DNA from: a phage
Length of the DNA stretch: 64,000 nt
Direction: 5' to 3' (one strand)
Sequence record: MZ956761.1
In this document: positions 26,390-37,086 of the stretch, piece after piece
How positions within the stretch are numbered: position 1 is the stretch's first letter
Layout: each line of letters begins with the position of its first letter
Made by a program: the position numbers and the translations under genes
The notes under the pieces: model-generated
The model's input: only the letters and a program-made list of their open reading frames with translations
Databases searched by the model: none
Told to the model about the DNA's origin: nothing

Positions 26390-26851
26390 ATGATTATTAA
26401 TGAAAACTCTTGGCATTATAAATTATTCAAATTGTTTAACGATGAATGGCAACGACCTAAGACACTATGCGCATATTTTTGGTCTATTGTCATTCCTACA
26501 TTTTTCGTTTCTATTTTTGGGTGTGCTATACTCGTAGGGCTAACAATTATTTGTGCAGAAAGCCTACAACGTTGGCTTATTTTCGGTAGTTTATGGACTC
26601 TTCTTCCATCGGCATTTATACTTGCGCTTTTGGTTGTTTTACTTATTATCGGTTCATTTGTTATTCCTGCACATTTGCGTGAAAAATATAAAGATTATAA
26701 ATGGAAAAAGGATTATGCTTTACACGTAGAAAATATTGATAGAGCGTATAAAGGTTTACCTCCTATTCAACCCAAGAAATCGGTTATCGTTGAATTTTTA
26801 AAAGCTCGTAAAGCTAAAGTATGTCCTGTTATTGAATATAAGGCTGAATGA
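26390..26851 (+). CDS. Membrane protein
   Basis: 153 aa, at least two hydrophobic helices. Confidence 0.5.
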   Translation: MIINENSWHYKLFKLFNDEWQRPKTLCAYFWSIVIPTFFVSIFGCAILVGLTIICAESLQRWLIFGSLWTLLPSAFILALLVVLLIIGSFVIPAHLREKYKDYKWKKDYALHVENIDRAYKGLPPIQPKKSVIVEFLKARKAKVCPVIEYKAE

Positions 26852-27861
26852 TGAAAACAGTAATGAAAAGCTATTTTGGTAGTCATCTTTATGGAACTTC
26901 TACCCCAGAATCTGATGTAGATTTTAAAGAAATTTTTGTTCCTCCTGCTCGCGATATTCTTATCGGAAATGTTAAAGAGCACATGAGTAAAAACACCAAC
27001 AACACATCATCTAAAAACACTAAAGATGATATTGACCATGAACTATACAGTCTTAAGTATTTCTTTAAATTAGCAGCAGATGGTGAAACTGTAGCATTGG
27101 ATATGCTCCACACTCCACCTGAACTAGTGGTTAAATCTGATTTACCTGATGTATGGAAATTTATCCAAGACAATCGTTCACGGTTTTATACAACTAACAT
27201 GAAATCCTATTTAGGATATGTCCGCAAGCAAGCTTCTAAATACGGTGTCAAGGGTTCTCGTTTGGCCGCATTACGTGATGTATTGAAAGTAGTTAATCAA
27301 ATCCCTGACCAGTGGGTTGATTATCAAGAAGACGGTTCTATTAAGCAGCGTCGCACTAAAGTTGAAGATATTAAGCATCGTCTTCCAGAGAACGAATTCT
27401 GTGAATGGGTATTCCATAATCATGAGAAAACCGGTCCACAAACGTTCTACACTGTGTTGGGTCGTAAATATCAGACAACACTTTCTCTTATTGAGCTTAA
27501 GCAGTCACTGAACAAATTAGATGCTGAATACGGCGAACGTGCTCGTAAGGCTGAAGCGAATGAGGGCATTGACTGGAAAGCTCTGAGTCATGCTTGTCGT
27601 GGTGGACTCCAACTATTGGAAATTTACAAAACTGGTGACTTAGTCTATCCACTTCAAGACGCTCCATTTATTCTCGACGTGAAGCTGGGTAAACACCCAT
27701 TTAAAACTGTTCAAGAGTTTTTGGAAGATGTGGTCGATCAAGTAGAAGCAGCATCCATTGAAGCTTCTAAGAACGGTATGCAGCAAAAAGTAGACATGGG
27801 TTTTTGGGATGACTTCCTTGAGAGGGTTTATCTTGAAAACCACCGAAGTTATTATAAATGA
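26848..27861 (+). CDS. Nucleotidyltransferase-fold protein (Pol-beta superfamily-like)
   Basis: 337 aa; N-terminal FGSHLYGTSTPESDVDF matches G-S ... D-x-D nucleotidyltransferase motif. Confidence 0.5.
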   Translation: MMKTVMKSYFGSHLYGTSTPESDVDFKEIFVPPARDILIGNVKEHMSKNTNNTSSKNTKDDIDHELYSLKYFFKLAADGETVALDMLHTPPELVVKSDLPDVWKFIQDNRSRFYTTNMKSYLGYVRKQASKYGVKGSRLAALRDVLKVVNQIPDQWVDYQEDGSIKQRRTKVEDIKHRLPENEFCEWVFHNHEKTGPQTFYTVLGRKYQTTLSLIELKQSLNKLDAEYGERARKAEANEGIDWKALSHACRGGLQLLEIYKTGDLVYPLQDAPFILDVKLGKHPFKTVQEFLEDVVDQVEAASIEASKNGMQQKVDMGFWDDFLERVYLENHRSYYK

Positions 27862-27864
27862 TAA

Positions 27865-27888
27865 GGGAGCCTTCGGGCTCCCTTTTTT
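27865..27888 (+). terminator. Rho-independent terminator (UUCG tetraloop)
   Basis: gggagcc-ttcg-ggctccc plus TTTTTT. Confidence 0.75.
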
Positions 27889-27912
27889 ATTTCAAAAATT
27901 TTTCACAAAACT

Positions 27913-27942
27913 GTTTACAAGCATAAAGCTTTATGGTACTAT
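27913..27942 (+). promoter_or_regulatory. Early promoter (GTTTAC-N18-TACTAT)
   Basis: Spacer holds 14-bp palindrome cataaagctttatg at 27922-27935. Confidence 0.55.
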
Positions 27943-27976
27943 ACAACTATCAACTGATACGGATTTGGAGAATAAA

Positions 27977-28945
27977 ATGAAAACTGTAACTATCAATAAG
28001 GGTATCTACTTCGGTAAAGAAATCTCTGGAACTTTTGAGCTCTTAGGTGAATGGTTCCCAGATAATGCTCCGGTAGATGCACAAGGAGATGGTAAAGTTT
28101 TTGTTGAAATTGACGGTAAACGTCGCGGTGTTTGGGTTTACAAATCAGACATTTCATATGATGGTGTAAAAGTTGAAGAAGTTAAAGAATCATATGAAGA
28201 TATGAAAACCCGCATTAATAAAAGATTTAATGTTATGGGAATGATGACGAATGGTATTATTAACGGAAACATTCGTTCATTAATTATCTCTGGTGCGGCA
28301 GGTATTGGTAAAACGTATTCTTTAGATAAAGCTTTAAATAAAGCAAATGATATTGGATACATTGAGTATAAAAGCATTAATGGTAAAATCTCTGGTATCG
28401 GTCTTTATGAACAGCTCTGGAATAATCGTGAAGAGAATTCTGTCCTTTTGATTGATGATGTGGATGTTTTCTCTGATATGGACATTCTTAATCTTCTGAA
28501 AGCTGCTTTGGACACTGGAGAGACCCGTAAAGTCTGCTGGAGCACTGCATCTTCTTACTTAGAAGAAAAAGGCATTGAGCGTGAGTTTGAATTTAAAGGA
28601 ACGATTGTTTTTATCACAAACGTTGATATTGACCGCGAATTAGACCGTGGTACTAAACTTGCTCCACATTTACAAGCATTAGTGTCCCGCTCAGTTTATT
28701 TAGATTTGGGTGTTCACACTAATGAAGAAATTATGGTCAGGGTTGAAGATGTTATTCTTTCAACCGACATGATGCAAAAGCGCGGTCTTTCTGATGAAGA
28801 AACTTATAAAGCATTATCATGGATGAAAGTCAATGTTAACCGTTTACGCAATGTTTCACTGCGTACTGCTCTTTATCTTGCTGACTTTATTATGACCGAC
28901 AAAAATGGTTGGGAAGAAATCGCTGAGGTTACTCTTCTGAAATAA
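27977..28945 (+). CDS. ATPase with Walker A and B motifs (AAA-like)
   Basis: 322 aa from ATG 27977 (RBS GGAGAATAAA); GAAGIGKT and VLLIDDVD; track start 27809 runs through terminator and promoter. Confidence 0.5.
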   Translation: MKTVTINKGIYFGKEISGTFELLGEWFPDNAPVDAQGDGKVFVEIDGKRRGVWVYKSDISYDGVKVEEVKESYEDMKTRINKRFNVMGMMTNGIINGNIRSLIISGAAGIGKTYSLDKALNKANDIGYIEYKSINGKISGIGLYEQLWNNREENSVLLIDDVDVFSDMDILNLLKAALDTGETRKVCWSTASSYLEEKGIEREFEFKGTIVFITNVDIDRELDRGTKLAPHLQALVSRSVYLDLGVHTNEEIMVRVEDVILSTDMMQKRGLSDEETYKALSWMKVNVNRLRNVSLRTALYLADFIMTDKNGWEEIAEVTLLK

Positions 28946-29046
28946 TTCATAAGAGGACTTCTATGACAAAAAGGCAGTTCAGAAATAGATTATATGGACT
29001 GCCATCAAAAAGATGACTAGAATTAAACTGGTAAATGGAGGTAGTG

Positions 29047-29349
29047 ATGTTATACTCAAAGGCTCGTGAAATTTACGAAACTAAAATTAAAGAAGCTGTA
29101 CTTCAATTCGCAACAACGATGCGATGGACAAATGATTGGGAGTATTCAAAAAATCATAAGAAGCCCATGGTGACAAGAAAGGCTCATATGTTAGTGTTAA
29201 TAGACCGTGAGCAGATTAAAGCCCGAGAAGCCCTCCAGAATCATAAAAAGGCTGCTTTTGAATGGTTTATGGATAACACTGCTCCTGAGACTAAGAAAGC
29301 GGTGAGCGCGTGGTTCAGTGGAAAAAATTGTGAAAGAAGTTTCTTTTAG
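29047..29349 (+). CDS. Hypothetical protein
   Basis: 100 aa from ATG 29047 (RBS GGAGG). Confidence 0.4.
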   Translation: MLYSKAREIYETKIKEAVLQFATTMRWTNDWEYSKNHKKPMVTRKAHMLVLIDREQIKAREALQNHKKAAFEWFMDNTAPETKKAVSAWFSGKNCERSFF

Positions 29350-29351
29350 TG

Positions 29352-29381
29352 GTTTACAAGACTGTTCCTTTGTGGTACTAT
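29352..29381 (+). promoter_or_regulatory. Early promoter (GTTTAC-N18-TACTAT)
   Basis: GTTTAC 29352-29357, TACTAT 29376-29381. Confidence 0.55.
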
Positions 29382-29409
29382 ACAACTATCAACTACGGAG
29401 GAACACAAA

Positions 29410-29937
29410 ATGAACGCTAAAGATATTTTCAACCTGGTAAATTACAATGATGGTAAATTTAAATCTGAAGCACAAAGCAAGTTCTTTAACGACATCTCAA
29501 TCGGAGGTGAAATCACAGTTGATGGAGGACAAATTTACAAATCCCGCTGGAATTGGATCGTTATTATTGATGAGATTGGTATTGTAGAAATTTACAAAAA
29601 TACGAATAAAAATCGTACATTACACTGGTCTCGTGATACTAACGAACAGTACAAAAAGGATAAAGCATCTAAATTATCTCGTGTAACTCAAGAAGATATT
29701 GAGTTCATCAAGAAAGATATTTTAATGTATGATAACTTAATTGCTGAAGAGCAAGCTGTTATTGATAAATTTGATGAGATTAAAGCTTCTCGTGAAATTC
29801 CTGATTTTATGAAAGAATCAGTAAATGAACGATACTCTCTCATTTCAGAGCGTATTGAAACTTACAAAAAGCAAAGAGCTGAACGCCAAAATACTCTTCG
29901 GAAGTTTGAAGAACGGTTAAAGACGGTACTCGCATAA
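29410..29937 (+). CDS. Hypothetical protein
   Basis: 175 aa; helical, charged C-terminal half. Confidence 0.5.
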   Translation: MNAKDIFNLVNYNDGKFKSEAQSKFFNDISIGGEITVDGGQIYKSRWNWIVIIDEIGIVEIYKNTNKNRTLHWSRDTNEQYKKDKASKLSRVTQEDIEFIKKDILMYDNLIAEEQAVIDKFDEIKASREIPDFMKESVNERYSLISERIETYKKQRAERQNTLRKFEERLKTVLA

Positions 29938-29992
29938 CCGCTTTATACCAAGGATGGTATAATGGTTCTAAGCCCTTTTAATTGAGATTATT

Positions 29993-30400
29993 ATGAAACA
30001 GTTGATAATTAAAAGATTGAATTTATTGATATGTTGTTTATGTGTAGTAGTTGCATATGGTTATTACGCAATTAATGATTATATGCATTATAAAGATTAT
30101 GATGTTACTGTAGTTAATACTATTACAGGAACACAAGGAAAGGGGTCTAGTTTATCGTTTATTGCCGTATATGAACTCAAAGACGGTTATAGATTTAGTG
30201 AATATATTTCCCCAGAGATGTATTCTTCAATAGAAAAAGGTGATAATATTACTGTAAGTTTACGTCCTTTCGACGTAAAACAGACATTGTTTGATAATAT
30301 TGTTTGGTTCTTTGGAATGGTATTAGTTCAATCTGTATGCGGTGCTTATATAGTCTGTTCCATCTTATTCTGTATATTTAGTAAAATTGAAATTGAGTGA
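29993..30400 (+). CDS. Membrane protein
   Basis: 135 aa; N- and C-terminal hydrophobic helices. Confidence 0.5.
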   Translation: MKQLIIKRLNLLICCLCVVVAYGYYAINDYMHYKDYDVTVVNTITGTQGKGSSLSFIAVYELKDGYRFSEYISPEMYSSIEKGDNITVSLRPFDVKQTLFDNIVWFFGMVLVQSVCGAYIVCSILFCIFSKIEIE

Positions 30401-30407
30401 GGAAAAT

Positions 30408-31295
30408 ATGTCAGTCGTAATTAATAATGTCAATGCAGTAATTAAATCTTTAGTTAATAAAAAATTGAATGAATGGACTGTACTTCGTCGTGGAGAGCCA
30501 GATAAATTTTTTCATAGATTTAACCCAGTACTAAATTTAAATGTTATTGACAGAGATGTTCATGCAGAAATTTTAGATAAGTTTAAAGTTGATATTGGAT
30601 TTGGATTAGAAAAACATTTACAGCGAACAAATGGGTCTGGAATGGGTTTATCTAATCGCATCATGAAAGCCCTTAATAAAATTGGAGCATTGTCTCATAT
30701 TAATGCAAGTGAAATTCTTCGCAATTATAATAAAGGCTATGATCTTTACGGTCGACTAATGCCGAAATTATCATTCGACCAAATGATTACGGATTTGTGG
30801 GAAAATCAACGACGATTATTAGCATTAGGCGCTCGATTGGCTAAAGGTCTAGATAAACAAATGATTTTTAAAACTAATAATACAGAAGACCTTAAATGCT
30901 TTAAATTTAGTACACGCGGAATTGATTATTATATCAGAGCTCACTCTACAGATTATGTTAATATGGGGCATCATCTCTGTTTAGCTTTTGAAATTTTAAA
31001 AGAAGCTGGAACATTAGAATATGTGTCTGGTGCTAAATGCCCGATTGGTTCAAATTGCATTTTAATTTATCGCCCGGATGAATCCAGTTCAACTAAATTG
31101 CCTACAAAACCTGTACCAGTTCGTAGTAACGAAAAACATTCTGAACAAATTGATTATTTTAATAAACAGATTGAAGAGCTGAATATTTCTATTCAACAAT
31201 ATGATGATGAAATTTTCAGACTATCTGGACTGAGTAGTAAAGCTAAATCTGAGCGTGAAAAGTTAATTAAAATTGTCGATTTACTTAAATCTTAA
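30408..31295 (+). CDS. Hypothetical protein with C-terminal coiled coil (paralog set member 1)
   Basis: 295 aa from ATG 30408 (RBS GAGGAAAA); C-terminal ~40 aa heptad segment. Confidence 0.5.
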   Translation: MSVVINNVNAVIKSLVNKKLNEWTVLRRGEPDKFFHRFNPVLNLNVIDRDVHAEILDKFKVDIGFGLEKHLQRTNGSGMGLSNRIMKALNKIGALSHINASEILRNYNKGYDLYGRLMPKLSFDQMITDLWENQRRLLALGARLAKGLDKQMIFKTNNTEDLKCFKFSTRGIDYYIRAHSTDYVNMGHHLCLAFEILKEAGTLEYVSGAKCPIGSNCILIYRPDESSSTKLPTKPVPVRSNEKHSEQIDYFNKQIEELNISIQQYDDEIFRLSGLSSKAKSEREKLIKIVDLLKS

Positions 31296-31303
31296 GGAAC
31301 ACC

Positions 31304-32308
31304 ATGAAAACTCGTTCTCAAATTGAAGATATGGTTCGTAATGCCAGCTATACTCGTGATGTTATGACATTTTTGTGCCAAAATAATTTAGACCCTGATA
31401 AAGTTAATCGTGATATTCACTTTAAATATATGAATAGCAGTGAATGGTTACGTCATTTTAGTAAAGCGGGGTATATTACACAAATGACGGCTCGTGAGCA
31501 GCTCACCGATTTCTGTAAAACTATTGATTATAAAAATCCTCTATTTGTTCAAGGCGTTGGTCAGAGTAAGGTTGATTTATCATCTGGATTTTTTAATCCA
31601 AATCATTATCGTATTGAATGGAGATTTATTGCTCTATTCCGTAAACAATTAAAGCAAATTTTGTCGACGGCTAGTCGATTAAAAGGTTCTGACATTAACT
31701 TAAAGAACCTGAAATTTGATGGTTATACTCTTCAGATGGAAGTAAGACCATTAAAAGAAAATAACAGAACTGCACGAATTAGCTTTAAACCTAATACAAA
31801 AAATTCTCTTTCAATTTGCGAATGCCTTAAATCGCAGTTGACAGAAGCATTTAAGTATATGGATGTTGTTGCCGCTGTTCAGTCTAAGATTTTACCTCGT
31901 TTTGAGCGATTTAAATTAGACACAACAACATATGAACTTGATATGATCGTTTCATTTAAATACGATTTTTTGAGAAAGGACGAAGTCCCGCAAGAGAAAA
32001 AGCATGAAGTGCAAGATAACTACTCATCAAACGATTCTAAATTTTGGATGTATAGTTCAAGTAACATAGATGCATGTAAACTTAATAAAGTGAGTTTTCT
32101 TCCTACTGAAAATTCAAATTTTAAACCTGTAGAAAAATGGCACGCTGACGCGATTGAGAAGTCTATCAAGGCAGTAGATGATGAATTAGTTAAAGCAACC
32201 AATGAAATGCTAGAAGCTGAAAAGGTGTTAGAACAAGCTCAGTCAAGGGTTCAAAATCTGACAAAGCAACGTTCTAAACTGAACAATGCATTAAATGCAC
32301 TGAATTAG
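31304..32308 (+). CDS. Hypothetical protein with C-terminal coiled coil (paralog set member 2)
   Basis: 334 aa; N-terminus MKTRSQIED; C-terminal heptad segment. Confidence 0.5.
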   Translation: MKTRSQIEDMVRNASYTRDVMTFLCQNNLDPDKVNRDIHFKYMNSSEWLRHFSKAGYITQMTAREQLTDFCKTIDYKNPLFVQGVGQSKVDLSSGFFNPNHYRIEWRFIALFRKQLKQILSTASRLKGSDINLKNLKFDGYTLQMEVRPLKENNRTARISFKPNTKNSLSICECLKSQLTEAFKYMDVVAAVQSKILPRFERFKLDTTTYELDMIVSFKYDFLRKDEVPQEKKHEVQDNYSSNDSKFWMYSSSNIDACKLNKVSFLPTENSNFKPVEKWHADAIEKSIKAVDDELVKATNEMLEAEKVLEQAQSRVQNLTKQRSKLNNALNALN

Positions 32309-32337
32309 TTTACTTTGCCACAAGGATGTGGTATAAT
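32308..32337 (+). promoter_or_regulatory. Early promoter (GTTTAC-N18-TATAAT)
   Basis: Perfect TATAAT at 32332-32337 with TG upstream. Confidence 0.55.
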
Positions 32338-32365
32338 GTTCTTACTTTCTACTGAGGAGATTATT

Positions 32366-33367
32366 ATGACTCGCAACGAATATATCAAATCATTCAATAG
32401 CGTTATTGATGATAAAGCTATACCGATGTTTGGCCAAAATAGCGTTCTTTCTATTATCAATCAGTGGCTCAATAGTGTTGATGCAGGTATTGTTTCTTCT
32501 GCTAAATTTATTCATGAAATTCGTAAAATTTCTAGCCGTGTAGATAAAGATGTTATCAAGAAAACCTTTAAAGAGTCTCGTCTTCTTTCATATTTGGTTA
32601 ATCGGGATATTCTTGGTAATTTTGGGAAAGAAATTAAACGAACCAAAGATGTAGTAGGATATAATTGGTTCGGTGATGTTAATTCTTATCATCTTAATGT
32701 CAAAGAAGACCCTGAGAATATTTTTACTCGTCGTTGGATTAGTAATTTCAGACTTTTCAGAGGACAAATTCTAAAATCAGCTTCTAAATTATGTTATGGC
32801 GATTATCGTCAAATTCATCCTTTGGCTTCTGATATGATTATCATAAAAGAATATGAACTTGATAAAAATAAAGTATCTATTTTTGTGAATTATGGATTTT
32901 TTACACCAGAAACTAACCAAAAGAATATTAATAAATTTTTCTCAATTGCTAGCACTATAACTCGTCAATTAGAGACTGCATTACTTTGTATGGAAACAGT
33001 AGAAAATATTCATACATATCCTTTTAAGAATATATGCGGTTGGGAAGGATATAAAATTGTAGTTAGTCTTCGTGAAGTAAAGTGTGCGTACTCACCGACT
33101 GATAAAGAAATTTACCAACAAAAATGTGATGAAATTGTGAATACTCCTAAAGAAGAAACTACCCTTGAGGAACTAATGGAATGTCTTGACGATTCACCTG
33201 AACCGGTAGAAATTCGTCCAGAAGTTATTGCACTAGAAAAAGCTTATAAAGAAGTTCTAGAAATTTCTAATAAAGCACAGAAAGAATATGAGCAGGCTAA
33301 AAGGATTTGGGAAGAATCTGTTAATCGCTTGGATCGTCTTGAACAAGCTTTACAGTTAATTAAGTAA
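32366..33367 (+). CDS. Hypothetical protein with C-terminal coiled coil (paralog set member 3)
   Basis: 333 aa from ATG 32366 (RBS GAGGAGA); C-terminal heptad segment. Confidence 0.5.
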   Translation: MTRNEYIKSFNSVIDDKAIPMFGQNSVLSIINQWLNSVDAGIVSSAKFIHEIRKISSRVDKDVIKKTFKESRLLSYLVNRDILGNFGKEIKRTKDVVGYNWFGDVNSYHLNVKEDPENIFTRRWISNFRLFRGQILKSASKLCYGDYRQIHPLASDMIIIKEYELDKNKVSIFVNYGFFTPETNQKNINKFFSIASTITRQLETALLCMETVENIHTYPFKNICGWEGYKIVVSLREVKCAYSPTDKEIYQQKCDEIVNTPKEETTLEELMECLDDSPEPVEIRPEVIALEKAYKEVLEISNKAQKEYEQAKRIWEESVNRLDRLEQALQLIK

Positions 33368-33419
33368 TTTAAAGCCAAGGATGGCTCGGAGTATAAATCA
33401 TTAACCAAGTGAGAAGAAC

Positions 33420-34349
33420 ATGAAAACTCGTAAACATTATATTGATTATTTTGATAGTCTTATTACTAAACACCGTAATTATCAGATAGGACACAGAGCA
33501 GTAATCAATAATATTCTTCGTGATTTCCTTCAATATGTTGGCCAGGAAAATCATATCTGTAAAGATACTCAGAACGCCTATTCTCATTCATTGGGCAATT
33601 TGCTTGAATGGTTTAAACGTTCTCGCATGTTATCTTCTACTGTAGCTCACGATAACATTAAAAACTTTATGAAGCCAAGCTTCATTAAATCTGCGACATC
33701 TATAACCGATTTGGTTGAATTTACTATTGTTAACGATGTTAAAAAGACCCATTTAGCTGATTGGTTATCTACCATTCCTGAAACTAAATTTGCTGATAAA
33801 TTTGCTTGTCAGTTCAATGACCAAGTGAATATGCTTTTTAAGCATGCTCGCAAACTATTTACCGCAGGCGATGACCGTACAAATACAGTTCATGTTAAGG
33901 ATTGGGTTATTGCTGATGAAGTAACACACAAGCCAGGTGGTTCATCAGTGTTAATTAATATCCAAGTTCCTTATTATTACTCACGTAATCTCGGCACCAT
34001 GAACTCTAGAGAAATTAATAAGCACAACAAAACTATTCGTTCGTTGTCTTATAAACTCCGCATGATGTTAAAAATCATGGACGTAGTAGAAATGTATGAC
34101 GAAATCGAAGATAATGGTTCAATGTTATACAGTTCACGTATTCTAATTAAACTGAAGAATCCTAATACATATAAGACAGTTGTAAAAGAGCCTAAAGTAG
34201 AAAAGATTGATAATATGAGTGAAGAACGCGAATACCTCAAATCTCGACTGGTTGAAGTTGAAGCCCAGATTGCCGAACACACCAAATTGTTAAAAGCTCT
34301 TAATGCAAAAGCAAGTGGTTTACGTAATGCTATTGAGGTATTGAAATGA
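33420..34349 (+). CDS. Hypothetical protein with C-terminal coiled coil (paralog set member 4)
   Basis: 309 aa; N-terminus MKTRKHYIDYF; C-terminal heptad segment. Confidence 0.5.
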   Translation: MKTRKHYIDYFDSLITKHRNYQIGHRAVINNILRDFLQYVGQENHICKDTQNAYSHSLGNLLEWFKRSRMLSSTVAHDNIKNFMKPSFIKSATSITDLVEFTIVNDVKKTHLADWLSTIPETKFADKFACQFNDQVNMLFKHARKLFTAGDDRTNTVHVKDWVIADEVTHKPGGSSVLINIQVPYYYSRNLGTMNSREINKHNKTIRSLSYKLRMMLKIMDVVEMYDEIEDNGSMLYSSRILIKLKNPNTYKTVVKEPKVEKIDNMSEEREYLKSRLVEVEAQIAEHTKLLKALNAKASGLRNAIEVLK

Positions 34350-34735
34350 AAAAGCGCTTATTAGAAGATATTGCAGCTTCAAGTAATTCCAGTCTAATTA
34401 AAATTATTATGGCTGGTGAAGAAGACGATCTGGAAATGCGTGGAAAGATTCACGGCTGCGACGATTTAGATTTTAAACCTCCAGCATGGGATGCTATTAT
34501 GGCTATGGTTGAACGACGTGAAAGAGCTTCTAAAAACGTTCCTAATTGCCCTGAATGCGGTACTGAACAGGTTCAATTGATTAACTGGCGTAAACCGGAA
34601 CTTGAATATAAATGCCGTCATTGTAAACACAAATTTAGCAAGCATGCTCCGGAAATGGTTAAATTACCTGACTCTACTGAGTTCTTTAAAGAACTTGCGA
34701 GTGTTCAACCAATGCCTAATAATATTTTGGATTAA
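34346..34735 (+). CDS. Zinc-ribbon protein
   Basis: 129 aa; CPECGTEQ ... CRHCKHKF. Confidence 0.5.
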
Positions 34736-34737
34736 AA

Positions 34738-34980
34738 ATGACCAAGCGTAAAGAATATATGGAGACTGCTGAAAAGGCAGTCCGTGAATTAGCAATAGCG
34801 TATTATAATGAACATGGTAAATTTCCTGATAGATACAGCGTGCTTAAATCTGCTATAACTCGTTCATATAAAAATATGCTATCAGAAGTAAGTGATATTA
34901 TATACAAACATAAAGAGCAAACGGGCCAAAGTCTTGATTACGATGAGACTTTTAAACAAGTACTAGGAATTAAGGAATAA
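34738..34980 (+). CDS. Hypothetical protein
   Basis: 80 aa. Confidence 0.5.
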
Positions 34981-34981
34981 T

Positions 34982-35245
34982 ATGTTTAAAGTATATGGTT
35001 ATGATAGCAACATCCATAAATGTGTGTATTGCGATAATGCAAAACGTCTTTTGACTGTAAAGAAACAGCCGTTTGAATTTATCAACATTATGCCGGAAAA
35101 AGGTGTTTTTGATGATGAGAAAATCGCTGAGCTTCTGACGAAACTAGGTCGTGATACTCAAATTGGTTTGACGATGCCACAAGTATTTGCTCCTGATGGA
35201 AGTCATATTGGTGGATTTGACCAATTGCGGGAATACTTTAAATGA
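34982..35245 (+). CDS. nrdC: Glutaredoxin/thioredoxin NrdC
   Basis: 87 aa MFKVYGYDSNIHKCVYCDNAKRLL; CVYC active site. Confidence 0.85.
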   Translation: MFKVYGYDSNIHKCVYCDNAKRLLTVKKQPFEFINIMPEKGVFDDEKIAELLTKLGRDTQIGLTMPQVFAPDGSHIGGFDQLREYFK

Positions 35246-35457
35246 TGCTCGAAGGAACTGATTATATCCATGACTACCGCGGAAGCGCGGTATATGTAGG
35301 TGATGAAGTCGCAGTTTACTATGGGTATGGAACTTTGATGACAGCCAAGGTTATTCAAATTAAAAATAATCGTGCTAAACTCGAAGTTTATTATTCTAAT
35401 GGTGAAAAGTCTATTTCTAAATGGAAATACGGCGATTGTATGGTCAAAATGGGGTAA
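35242..35457 (+). CDS. Hypothetical protein
   Basis: 71 aa, ATGA overlap with nrdC. Confidence 0.45.
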   Translation: MMLEGTDYIHDYRGSAVYVGDEVAVYYGYGTLMTAKVIQIKNNRAKLEVYYSNGEKSISKWKYGDCMVKMG

Positions 35458-35459
35458 AT

Positions 35460-35630
35460 ATGATTTACGATATTAGTGTATCAAGAACTCCGTCAATGGT
35501 TACTATTCCAGCTGAAGAACTAGATCGTCTTCAGAAAATTGAAGAACTTCTTTGGGAAATTGAATCTGATTTGCCATCAGGACTAGAATCCTGGATTGAT
35601 TATGAAGAACTTAATAAATTGCGAAATTAA
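35460..35630 (+). CDS. Small hypothetical protein (56 aa)
   Basis: ATG 35460; track start 35421 overlaps upstream gene. Confidence 0.35.
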   Translation: MIYDISVSRTPSMVTIPAEELDRLQKIEELLWEIESDLPSGLESWIDYEELNKLRN

Positions 35631-35640
35631 TTGGTGAAAA

Positions 35641-35961
35641 ATGACTATTGAAAATAAATTAGATGTTGATGCAATTCTGAGCGAAATCATCGAAGACCAT
35701 GATGCATTTTCAGAAAATTATGATTTCGATTTTTCGGATTATCTTAAACCTGTCGAAATAGAAGATTGGGTACAAGATGGCAAATGCCAATATCGGCAGT
35801 GCGTTTATTTTAGTCCAAAACATAACGTTTATGTGTCTGTAAATGAATCTCGCTCAGGTTCTTACCATTCTGACTGGTATTATGCAGTTCCTACAGTTGA
35901 ACTGGTTGAGCTTCGAGAACGTGTAGTAACTCAGACAGTACGAGAATGGATTACGCTATAA
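35641..35961 (+). CDS. Hypothetical protein
   Basis: 106 aa acidic. Confidence 0.45.
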   Translation: MTIENKLDVDAILSEIIEDHDAFSENYDFDFSDYLKPVEIEDWVQDGKCQYRQCVYFSPKHNVYVSVNESRSGSYHSDWYYAVPTVELVELRERVVTQTVREWITL

Positions 35962-36084
35962 AACCTTGGTGGGCGGCTAGATGGGAAACTGTAGAGCCAG
36001 AGCCGGAAGAACCGGTTTACACTGATGAAGAAACAGTATATAATGAACCAACGATAAATGACTTAATTGATATGGAGATGGGAC

Positions 36085-36489
36085 ATGATTACAGTAGATA
36101 AGTGGTTTAGAATTAATCGTGCTGATACAGGGCTGTGTAATTACTGGCCGGAACTTAGTGCAGGTGCTGTCTTTAAAGTTCGTGAACTTGCAAAAGAATG
36201 TGAAGATGATATAGAACCTGATACTGGAATTATTGAAATTGAACTTTCTGATGGAAAGATTATTAACATCTACGATAAGCCAATTACGTATTGGTGCTTA
36301 TGGAATACTGAATCAGTAGAAAATGGCGAAATTGAAGAAGTTGTAGAGAGAACTAATCAAGTTGTTCAGAAGCCTAAAGCCGATTTTCAAGGTGAACGCA
36401 TTTCATACGCATTAGCTAAATTAGCTGCACAAGAAAATAACGATGGTTATGAAGGAAATTTAATGCAAGCTTGCCGCAGAGTACATTGA
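36085..36489 (+). CDS. Hypothetical protein
   Basis: 134 aa from ATG 36085 (RBS GGAGATGGG). Confidence 0.45.
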   Translation: MITVDKWFRINRADTGLCNYWPELSAGAVFKVRELAKECEDDIEPDTGIIEIELSDGKIINIYDKPITYWCLWNTESVENGEIEEVVERTNQVVQKPKADFQGERISYALAKLAAQENNDGYEGNLMQACRRVH

Positions 36490-36612
36490 ATGGCTTGAAA
36501 CTCAAATTTCTTTTTCTGACCGAATGATTCAGCAATATAAGCGATTGCATCAAATGTTTTACAATACTTGAAAATAATAAATACCCTTATCTATTTAAGG
36601 TAAGGGTTTATT

Positions 36613-37086
36613 ATGTTATTGACTGGCAAATTATATAAAGAAGAAAAACAGAAATTTTATGATGCACAAAACGGTAAATGTTTAATTTGCCAACGAGAAC
36701 TAAATCCTGATGTTCAAGCTAATCACCTTGACCATGACCATGAATTAAATGGACCAAAAGCAGGAAAGGTACGTGGATTGCTTTGTAATCTCTGCAATGC
36801 TGCAGAAGGTCAAATGAAGCATAAATTTAATCGTTCTGGCTTAAAGGGACAAGGTGTTGATTATCTTGAATGGTTAGAAAATTTACTCACTTATTTAAAA
36901 TCCGATTACACCCAAAATAATATTCACCCTAACTTTGTTGGAGATAAATCAAAGGAATTTTCTCGTTTAGGAAAAGAGGAAATGATGGCTGAGATGCTTC
37001 AAAGAGGATTTGAATATAATGAATCTGACACTAAAACACAATTAATAGCTTCATTTAAGAAGCAACTTAGAAAGAGTTTAAAATGA
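36613..37086 (+). CDS. 49: Endonuclease VII (Holliday junction resolvase) gp49
   Basis: 157 aa; recognised T4 endo VII zinc motif CLICQRELNPD...HLDHDH...CNLCN. Confidence 0.9.
   Translation: MLLTGKLYKEEKQKFYDAQNGKCLICQRELNPDVQANHLDHDHELNGPKAGKVRGLLCNLCNAAEGQMKHKFNRSGLKGQGVDYLEWLENLLTYLKSDYTQNNIHPNFVGDKSKEFSRLGKEEMMAEMLQRGFEYNESDTKTQLIASFKKQLRKSLK

Follow-up and report, generated by a model that had tools for sequence, protein, structure and literature searches.

Known relatives and the nrdC.6 to nrdC.3 locus

The best described relative of the proteins considered here is NrdC.5 of phage T4 (Pfam family DUF7235), which neutralises Dsr1, a SIR2 NADase defence of ECOR17 (Srikant, Guegler and Laub 2022; PMC9391042). 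Dsr1 recognises the major capsid protein by means of a sensor that is a TPR array (PMC12803255). Very few inhibitors of SIR2 NADase defences have been described, and NrdC.5 is among them. T4 NrdC.3 and NrdC.4 (phrog_1435, PF26897) and NrdC.6 (phrog_2257, PF26899) are T-even hypothetical proteins. A literature search returned no functional report for these three, which are not mentioned in the text of the HIDEN-SEQ preprint either. It also yielded no publication that deals with the mode of action of NrdC.5 or with the families DUF7235, PF26897 or PF26899.

Two other systems offer functional parallels. The small protein DSAD1 of SPbeta-like Bacillus phages is reported to bind the repeat-type sensor domain of DSR2, a SIR2 NADase defence protein, and to block its activation by the phage structural trigger. 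DSAD1 might be a functional analogue of NrdC.5 with regard to the mode of action proposed below; no kinship in sequence or structure is claimed, and the two differ in host, phage family and size. DSAD1 is not known to have a coiled-coil tail. The internal proteins IPI, IPII and IPIII of T4 and the anti-TA island dmd-tifA-adfA resemble the present genes in being non-essential accessory genes clustered in variable T-even regions, each of which counters a different host defence and which are swapped or lost between related phages. However, the internal proteins carry a common N-terminal sequence that directs them to the capsid, and they are injected along with the DNA, whereas NrdC.3 to NrdC.6 possess no capsid-targeting signal, are about 300 aa long and have a whole-length fold and a C-terminal helix in common.

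The window analysed here is a stretch of 64,000 nucleotides (sequence record MZ956761.1) that is 100% identical to Escherichia phage ADUt (Tequatrovirus). A previous reading of the sequence alone had pointed to four consecutive ORFs of similar length, which are indeed present exactly at these positions and match GenBank CDS of ADUt:

30408..31295, + strand: nrdC.6 orthologue (295 aa; full-length match to phrog_2257, E 1.4e-150)
31304..32308, + strand: nrdC.5 orthologue (334 aa; Pfam DUF7235, PF23882; 91% identity with T4 NrdC.5)
32366..33367, + strand: nrdC.4 orthologue (333 aa; full-length match to phrog_1435, E 1e-167)
33420..34349, + strand: nrdC.3 orthologue (309 aa; full-length match to phrog_1435, E 1.5e-115)

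The first protein shares 95-97% identity with Tequatrovirus NrdC.6. The second matches DUF7235 with 373.6 bits (cut-off 30) over profile positions 1-307 of 307, and this full-length match, the 91% identity and the same position in the array identify it, at the level of sequence, as the orthologue of the anti-Dsr1 protein NrdC.5. In the Pfam scan, the DUF7235 model did not match any of the other three ORFs, which are orthologues of the T-even hypothetical proteins; PF26899 and PF26897 are precomputed assignments on NrdC.6 homologues and on all NrdC.4 homologues, respectively.

The four genes form a tandem paralogue array

The genes are adjacent, lie on one strand with gaps of 8, 57 and 52 nt between successive members, and are homologous over most of their length. 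The relationship of NrdC.5 to the other three proteins is visible only by profile-profile and structural evidence. Pairwise BLASTP detected a single pair, NrdC.4 and NrdC.3 (27% identity, E 1e-7), which is in keeping with the earlier description of the bodies as diverged; hhalign joined the same pair with 98.1% and E 9e-14. The NrdC.5 family aligned with a merged profile of NrdC.4, NrdC.3 and F48 (95.9%, E 5.7e-9, 239 colinear columns), and the match remained significant with bodies-only profiles, from which the tails had been removed (91.5%, E 8e-7). F48 stands for gp57 of Klebsiella phage F48, a protein with a full-length match to phrog_1435 (E 1.7e-9) and a match to the tail of phrog_2351 (E 1.6e-10). 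Merged profiles also linked NrdC.6 plus PG7 to NrdC.5 plus CGG41 (79%, E 1.6e-5) and to NrdC.4, NrdC.3 and F48 (67%, E 5e-5). All pairwise alignments keep one consistent register through two body motifs. In addition, a multiple alignment revealed the N-terminus TR-x-E-Y/F-I in NrdC.5, NrdC.4, NrdC.3 and F48. The MKTR start seen previously in two of the proteins belongs to NrdC.5 and NrdC.3 (ORFs 2 and 4), and the MTRNEY of NrdC.4 (ORF 3) represents the same conserved motif.

Tails-only profiles gave nothing significant between the paralogues (best E 1e-3). Since the bodies-only profiles did, the tail is not a shared cassette and each paralogue has its own tail. A common oligomerisation module, in the form originally suggested, is not supported.

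The single-family hhalign scores of NrdC.5 and NrdC.6 are near noise (the background scan was run on thinned alignments). An HMM of NrdC.4/3 retrieved nine matches from 1.84 billion representative proteins, all of the NrdC.4/3 type, and neither NrdC.5 or NrdC.6 nor any cellular homologue was among them. At the DNA level, direct repeats among the four genes are limited to short chance-level matches, which indicates that the duplications are old. Pfam and PHROGs hold NrdC.5, NrdC.6 and NrdC.3/NrdC.4 as separate families. The product of nrdC.8, which also ends in a helix, was considered as a truncated family member and rejected, as it is absent from the top hhalign matches of the four families.

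AlphaFold2 monomer models of NrdC.4 (pLDDT 83.7) and NrdC.6 (pLDDT 78) display an identical order of secondary-structure elements. In the NrdC.6 model, the N-terminal region is helical and is followed by an alpha/beta body, which a short linker connects to the C-terminal helix. At 211 body positions of a sequence-only alignment, the secondary structures of the two models agree by 72%, compared with a mean of 40% and a maximum of 51% under a circular-shift null. Both models share neighbours in BFVD, among them proteins of IME523 (E 4.4e-8 with either model), PM2, Acj9, CBH8 and PS2 as well as an NrdC.3-type protein of fPS-65, with Foldseek TM-scores of only 0.4-0.5. NrdC.6 thus appears to join the family mainly via the predicted structures, its sequence link being weak (E ~1e-2 to 5e-5), whereas the fold of NrdC.5 and NrdC.3 is inferred from the profiles. 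Each of the four proteins is accordingly predicted to have an alpha/beta body that is preceded by a helical N-terminal region and followed, after a flexible linker, by an amphipathic heptad helix of about 50 residues at the very end of the chain. The body bears a faint resemblance to tail terminator and tail completion proteins (lambda gpU-like alpha/beta sandwich).

Full-length homology by profile-profile comparison, two independent structural models, common structural neighbours and synteny therefore bear out the suspected tandem paralogue family. The DUF7235, NrdC.3/4 and NrdC.6 families, together with at least phrog_26858, phrog_31182 and phrog_12512, are joined here as one superfamily. 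The genes themselves had been described before, and the novelty of the family link is modest. Several database families of unknown function thereby become one family with a functional lead.

The C-terminal helices

The following C-terminal segments were delimited:

31128..31292, + strand: predicted NrdC.6 helix, aa 241-295 (AlphaFold2 helix 241-294; heptad p 0.08)
32135..32305, + strand: predicted NrdC.5 heptad helix, about aa 278-334 (heptad score)
33218..33364, + strand: predicted NrdC.4 helix, aa 285-333 (AlphaFold2 helix 285-332, pLDDT 72-81; heptad p 0.023)
34206..34346, + strand: predicted NrdC.3 heptad helix, about aa 263-309 (windows starting at 271-282 significant, 0/300 shuffles)

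Heptad patterns were scored with a home-made 28-residue window and 300 shuffles per protein instead of a standard coiled-coil predictor. When the whole sequences were scanned, the top-scoring window was C-terminal in all four proteins. When the 85 ORFs with 80 aa or more on the + strand of the stretch were compared, the four C-termini ranked 1, 2, 4 and 7 by heptad score. None of the 300 shuffles reached the observed score of NrdC.5 or of NrdC.3; the score of NrdC.6 is weaker because of a Gly/Ser break. In NrdC.5, every window that starts between residues 275 and 307 scores above the 95th percentile of the shuffled maxima, the a/d positions of the best window are 100% hydrophobic, and the tail gives weak Pfam cross-hits to the coiled-coil families DUF4164 and V-SNARE_C. 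All four tails are long heptad helices ending in L-x-x-A-L-x-x-L-K, and the pattern L-x-x-[AI]-[LIV]-x-[LAV]-[LI]-[KN] occurs only in these four, although it was derived from the same four proteins and is hence descriptive. The coiled-coil signature, i.e. a long helix with a heptad a/d pattern, is present throughout, although the heptad score of NrdC.6 is weak. The original estimate of 35-40 aa for these helices was right about the pattern but too short for NrdC.4 and NrdC.6, whose helices run uninterrupted over 48-54 residues in the AlphaFold2 models.

It is possible, though less likely, that the C-terminal helix does not oligomerise as a coiled coil and instead packs against the body of its own protein, or that it is itself the effector, an amphipathic helix that inserts into a target, for instance into a groove formed by a TPR or alpha-solenoid sensor such as that of Dsr1. 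The many Ala residues at predicted d positions of NrdC.5 and the Gly/Ser break of NrdC.6 would be compatible with this, and the tails are family-specific and the best-conserved region among orthologues (60-70% identity, also in NrdC.6, compared to 25-49% for the bodies), as expected for a functional interface. On the other hand, the uninterrupted helix follows a disordered linker (residues 260-284 of NrdC.4 are modelled with low confidence), and the hydrophobic a/d periodicity of NrdC.5, NrdC.3 and NrdC.4 is regular across four to eight heptads, which is a classical coiled-coil signature. Both readings are compatible with these observations.

Distribution, divergence and possible function

The superfamily is confined to T4-like phages (Straboviridae and their near relatives). 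A survey of copy number across these phages revealed four copies in Tequatrovirus, three each in Mosigvirus, Gaprivervirus and Dhakavirus, and a single copy at the same position in more distant T4-like phages. Single-copy homologues occur in T4-like phages of Klebsiella, Enterobacter, Salmonella, Acinetobacter, Pectobacterium, Serratia and Erwinia; in Slopekvirus phiKp_20, the first 10 kb downstream of nrdC.11 contain no gene that obviously belongs to the family. The ancestral state was probably a single copy immediately upstream of nrdC.2/nrdC, from which duplications would have produced the sets of three copies and, in Tequatrovirus, of four.

Within each orthologue group the body is the fastest-diverging part, and even inside one host genus the divergence is extreme: between Acinetobacter phages, identities reach from 97% to as little as 20%. 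NrdC.3 exists in two allele classes, whose alpha/beta bodies are 48% identical within otherwise 98%-identical DNA; ADUt carries the class other than that of the T4 reference (60% amino acid identity to T4). The array genes evolve faster than their surroundings, with gene-wide dN/dS values of 0.09-0.35 versus 0.00-0.12 in most neighbours. These values, all below 1, mean purifying selection and no gene-wide positive selection, and at that level they give no sign of an "arms race". Within the orthologue groups, the notion of a diversifying recognition domain does agree with the conserved tails, the divergent bodies and the NrdC.3 alleles.

Genes that are anti-defence genes by publication flank the array on both sides:

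29410..29937, + strand: nrdC.8 orthologue (98.9% identity with bas37_0203, which is reported to inhibit Druantia type III)
34738..34980, + strand: nrdC.1 orthologue (98.8% identity with T4 NrdC.1, reported as a Septu inhibitor)
35641..35961, + strand: gene 49.2 orthologue (95% identity with T4; T6 Gp49.2 is reported to inhibit the OLD defence)

PADLOC defence-protein models did not match the four proteins, apart from a weak hit between the tail of NrdC.4 and BrxC (E 0.008), which is a coiled-coil cross-match.

As NrdC.5 disarms a bacterial immune protein, NrdC.3, NrdC.4 and NrdC.6 are good candidates for a task of the same kind. The likeliest reading, and one that we consider reasonably probable, is that the four are full-length diverged tandem paralogues which act as stoichiometric inhibitors of different host defences. 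The proteins would be early-expressed and non-enzymatic, and each might be directed against a different host defence protein. The fast-changing body could provide the target-binding surface, and the conserved, family-specific tail helix might serve for self-assembly or for insertion into the target. For NrdC.5, the likeliest mode of action would be to bind Dsr1 at its TPR sensor and thereby prevent its activation by the phage trigger, in analogy to DSAD1 and DSR2. Considerably more tentative is an extension of this reading, according to which NrdC.3 to NrdC.6 and their single-copy relatives constitute a superfamily of decoy-type inhibitors of pattern-recognition defences (Dsr1, Avs7-type TPR sensors and other sensors of phage structural proteins), one system per paralogue. 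The alpha/beta body would then be a non-activating mimic of the phage structural ligand, and the paralogue-specific tails would have diverged so that co-expressed paralogues only self-assemble.

A less probable explanation is that the proteins are true paralogues but do not form a set of defence inhibitors. The anti-Dsr1 effect of NrdC.5 would be a special case or side effect, and the family would have another early role in host takeover or housekeeping, e.g. in nucleotide metabolism or transcription, where its members might act as scaffolds or adaptors that assemble through the coiled-coil tail. The experimental function described in the literature is limited to NrdC.5, the selection is purifying, and the retention of a single copy at a fixed position across distant T4-like genera suggests a conserved role. 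However, phages can do without the array genes, which have often been deleted or fused, both in natural phages and in evolved ones, and which in natural Tequatroviruses are also frequently swapped for other alleles. Together with the divergence among the Acinetobacter phages, the variable copy number, the allelic cassette of nrdC.3 and the experimentally defined anti-defence genes on both flanks, this is the usual picture for accessory genes of counter-defence, not for housekeeping genes.

Very improbable, finally, is the view that only NrdC.4 and NrdC.3 are paralogous and that NrdC.5 and NrdC.6 are unrelated proteins of similar size with convergent helical tails: the near-noise BLASTP and single-family scores, the narrow yield of the NrdC.4/3 HMM and the separate database families speak for it, but it is largely refuted by the merged and bodies-only profiles of NrdC.5, the single alignment register, the element order and structural neighbours that the NrdC.6 model shares with NrdC.4, and the common N-terminus.

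Three candidate anti-defence genes are hereby named in the best-studied phage. The set of paralogues lends itself to swaps of bodies and tails that could separate target recognition from assembly, and the variability of the array is relevant to the prediction of host range in phage therapy.

With regard to gene organisation, nrdC.5 and nrdC.4 lie in one shared frame with a single stop between them, and the 57-nt gap preceding nrdC.4 contains a promoter-like site:

32309..32337, + strand: candidate promoter-like site, TTTACT-17-TATAAT with extended -10 TG (consensus scan, 10/12 matches)

The nrdC.6-nrdC.3 genes as a probable paralogue family

Across positions 30000-35300, the window has 100% identity to Escherichia phage ADUt (OQ466432.1), a Tequatrovirus, and 90-99% identity to hundreds of T4-type phages. 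The window's plus strand corresponds to minus on the T4 map, and by position and similarity the four consecutive ORFs, for which the sequence-only reading had given correct coordinates, lengths and MKTR starts, could be assigned as follows:

30408-31295, plus strand, nrdC.6, 295 aa
31304-32308, plus strand, nrdC.5, 334 aa
32366-33367, plus strand, nrdC.4, 333 aa
33420-34349, plus strand, nrdC.3, 309 aa

The array is flanked by nrdC.7 and nrdC.2. The annotation of all four genes dates back to the sequencing of the T4 genome, and a function has been published for one of them. NrdC.5 belongs to Pfam DUF7235 (373.6 bits), NrdC.6 to phrog_2257, and phrog_1435 takes in both NrdC.4 and NrdC.3. The GenBank record of ADUt gives the product name "thioredoxin" to every nrdC.x gene (OQ466432.1, over window positions 26848-37086). 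This is wrong: the family-database search found no thioredoxin domain in any of the four proteins, and the label is an annotation artefact that has spread from the gene name.

The supposition that these genes form a tandem paralogue family is borne out for NrdC.5, NrdC.4 and NrdC.3, whose paralogy is established. BLASTP among the four proteins detected NrdC.4 and NrdC.3 as the sole pair (E 1e-7). Profiles built from the orthologues of each gene matched strongly for NrdC.4 and NrdC.3 (98.1%, E 9e-14, across the first 220 residues) and colinearly for NrdC.5 and NrdC.4 (41%, E 3e-4), while NrdC.6 gave weak scores throughout. With 44 other window ORFs (150 aa or longer) as background, the paralogues ranked at or near the top of every family's list, with the scores of NrdC.5 and NrdC.6 near noise.

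At the level of sequence, the decisive evidence comes from single-copy relatives in other genera. The protein gp57 of Klebsiella phage F48 (315 aa, N-terminus MTRNEV, C-terminus ...TQRGKLLRAIQALK) aligns with 229 columns of the NrdC.4 family (90.7%, E 1e-6) and with the tail of the NrdC.5 family (95%, E 4e-8); HMMER matches it to phrog_1435 along the entire length (E 1.7e-9) and to the tail of phrog_2351 (E 1.6e-10). Once F48 gp57 is added to the NrdC.4+3 profile, 239 colinear columns can be aligned with the NrdC.5 family (95.9%, E 5.7e-9), and the match persists between the bodies only, with the last 70 residues cut from every sequence (91.5%, E 8e-7). A MAFFT alignment of 21 representatives of all families, made from sequence only, shows an N-terminal TR-x-E-Y/F-I motif common to NrdC.5, NrdC.4, NrdC.3 and F48. 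It also aligns across families the helix motif [L/I]-[S/T]-x4-A-[R/S/H]-x2-[L/I]-x-N-[F/Y], a second one, [I/L]-L-x2-A-x-[R/K]-L-x1-3-G-x-D, and, further on, a helix with ...M-[D/E]-x-V-E.

NrdC.6 is very likely a member of the same family, mainly by predicted structure. Combined with gp082 of Karamvirus PG7, its profile is weakly linked to NrdC.4+3+F48 (67%, E 5e-5) and to NrdC.5+CGG41_078 (79%, E 1.6e-5). The AlphaFold2 models of NrdC.6 and NrdC.4 (pLDDT 78 and 83.7) have the same order of elements. A pair of helices comes first, then a reduced beta-hairpin region, two helices with a short third one, a pair of strands, a long helix, a further pair of strands, the linker and finally the long terminal helix. 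On the sequence-only alignment, their independently predicted secondary structures coincide at 72% of the 211 body positions, compared with 40% on average and at most 51% under circular shifts. Foldseek against BFVD retrieved neighbours that are mostly common to both models, all of them uncharacterised proteins of 300-370 aa from T4-like phages: Enterobacter IME523 (E 4.4e-8 with both models alike), Pectobacterium PM2, Acinetobacter Acj9 and Acj61, Serratia CBH8 and PS2, and an NrdC.3-type protein of Yersinia phage fPS-65.

C-terminal helices and variable bodies

The proposed C-terminal heptad-pattern helix was found in all four proteins. With a simple score for 28-residue windows (hydrophobic fraction at a/d plus polar fraction at the other positions), the best window of the entire sequence lies at the C-terminus in each case. 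None of 300 shuffles reached the score of NrdC.5 or that of NrdC.3, and the p-values are 0.023 for NrdC.4 and 0.08 for NrdC.6; in a ranking of 85 plus-strand ORFs from the window, the four C-termini take places 1, 2, 4 and 7. In the AlphaFold2 models, NrdC.4 ends in one unbroken helix (285-332, pLDDT 72-81) preceded by a disordered linker, and NrdC.6 likewise in one unbroken helix (241-294). All four proteins share the terminal pattern L-x-x-[A/I]-[L/I/V]-x-x-[L/I]-K. Judged from the heptad pattern and the monomer models, the tails may form coiled coils.

The idea of a common module carried by all four proteins was not supported as stated. Tails-only profiles of the paralogues do not match significantly (best E 1e-3), so that the tail is not a shared cassette. 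Instead, it is the best-conserved region inside each orthologue group. Between the ADUt and VR25 versions of NrdC.6, identity is 25% in the N-terminal region, 49% in the alpha/beta body and 69% in the tail; for NrdC.5 of ADUt and the orthologue P0058, the values are 27%, 42% and 61%. For the four genes, gene-wide dN/dS lies at 0.09-0.35, compared with 0.00-0.12 for most neighbours; the four genes are functional and under somewhat relaxed selection, without positive selection gene-wide.

Distribution and plasticity of the locus

A tblastn search of 50,697 phage records yielded matches for nrdC.6 in 742, nrdC.3 in 654, nrdC.4 in 554 and nrdC.5 in 546 records, all of them from T4-type phages of enterobacteria. 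The composition of the array differs by genus and was confirmed with PHROG matches.

Composition of the array by genus
Tequatrovirus: 6-5-4-3
Mosigvirus (JS09): 6-5-3
Gaprivervirus (VR25, SP18) and Dhakavirus (Bp7): 6-5-4

One family member lies directly upstream of nrdC.2/nrdC in Karamvirus PG7, Marfavirus F48, Gelderlandvirus CGG4-1 and Acinetobacter phage PhT2; that of PhT2 is 97% identical to a protein of fHyAci03, which is a structural match of NrdC.4. Among Acinetobacter phages, which share one host genus, the single-copy member falls into classes of approximately 97%, 36%, 28% and 20% identity. In Acj61, two proteins with adjacent accessions (E5E4A1 and E5E4A2) are both structural matches in BFVD, pointing to an independent duplication in that phage.

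The locus is plastic. A natural in-frame fusion of NrdC.6 (aa 1-269) to NrdC.4 (aa 251-333) occurs in Salmonella phage Manna (our record L007, 5215-6252); it was formed by a 1.9-kb deletion with loss of nrdC.5. The deletion junction is exactly a 21-nt imperfect repeat (window 31194-31214 in nrdC.6 and 33116-33136 in nrdC.4) with the microhomology sequence CAACAA-A-T-TGATGAAATT. ACG-C40 has retained nrdC.6 alone, plus remnants. The database homologue P0057 is a chimera of the middle part of NrdC.5, out of register, and NrdC.3 from about residue 137. In P0122, the NrdC.6 of Shigella phage Sf25, 83 residues are duplicated internally in tandem. The two proteins show illegitimate recombination at the locus.

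Compared with T4, the window DNA is 90-99% identical except in nrdC.3 and towards the 3' end of nrdC.2. In this allelic cassette (33477-34700), identity falls to 47-71%, with flanks of 96-99%. The two NrdC.3 alleles diverge most in the alpha/beta body, at 48% identity; their N-terminal regions share 82% and their tails 74%. NrdC.2, which has a zinc-ribbon signature (CPxC...CxxC), comprises 129 aa in ADUt and 104 aa in T4, with an additional segment of 84 nt at the 3' end in ADUt.

In the T4 reference (NC_000866), one A is missing from nrdC.6 at window position ~31183 (GAGCTGAATATT to GAGCTGATATT), and through this 1-nt deletion the annotated NrdC.6 of 275 aa has lost the entire C-terminal helix. 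Since the T4 DNA past this point retains the tail coding with 97% identity, the deletion is either a recent frameshift of the laboratory strain or a sequencing error.

Anti-defence context and neighbouring features

Pin, encoded at 36085-36489, is an inhibitor of the Lon protease. Further genes around the array are published anti-defence factors:

29410-29937, nrdC.8, 98.9% identical to bas37_0203, which counters Druantia III (preprint)
34738-34980, nrdC.1, published to counter Septu
35641-35961, 49.2, published to counter OLD

The equivalence of nrdC.8 and bas37_0203 was derived here from this identity and from locus tags, through that in phage KarlGJung; it is not stated in the preprint text. 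For the array itself, a T4 deletion mutant does not plate on cells with dsr1 of ECOR17, and expression of T4 nrdC.5 restores plating (Srikant, Guegler and Laub, PMC9391042). The NrdC.5 proteins of ADUt and T4 are 91% identical. According to a 2026 preprint (PMC12803255), Dsr1 recognises major capsid proteins through its sensor, a TPR array.

Together with nrdC.8, nrdC.1, 49.2 and pin, nrdC.5 constitutes an anti-defence island, and the array as a whole would extend a known kind, the phage accessory counter-defence genes in hyperplastic regions. The action of NrdC.5 against Dsr1 and the published flanking genes suggest an array of defence inhibitors. These would be non-enzymatic and stoichiometric, each member directed against a different host defence protein, with the body as recognition surface and the family-specific tail as an assembly or interface helix. 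Experimental support exists for the NrdC.5-Dsr1 pairing alone; we infer the binding mode, the other three targets and the oligomeric state. With respect to Pfam, PHROGs and the searchable literature, it appears to be new that the four proteins are one paralogue family, that this family reaches distant T4-like phages as a single-copy gene, and that the tail is paralogue-specific with a body variable within orthologues.

The 57-nt gap between nrdC.5 and nrdC.4 contains a good match to a sigma-70-type promoter (32309-32337) with an extended -10, overlapped by a 7-bp hairpin (32316-32333); only 8 nt separate nrdC.7 from the start of nrdC.6, and there is a 4-nt overlap of nrdC.3 with nrdC.2. Taken together, these predicted signals and spacings indicate that the array probably comprises two or more separate units of transcription or translation. 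The annotated ORF of nrdC.10 (27809-28945) overlaps the end of nrdC.11 and begins 56 codons upstream of the PHROG profile start. Since this N-terminal extension contains a strong GC-rich hairpin of 9 bp with a T-run behind it (27863-27884), terminator-like on both strands, the gene probably begins near 27968 in reality. NrdC.10 also gives weak P-loop, AAA and STAND-type matches.
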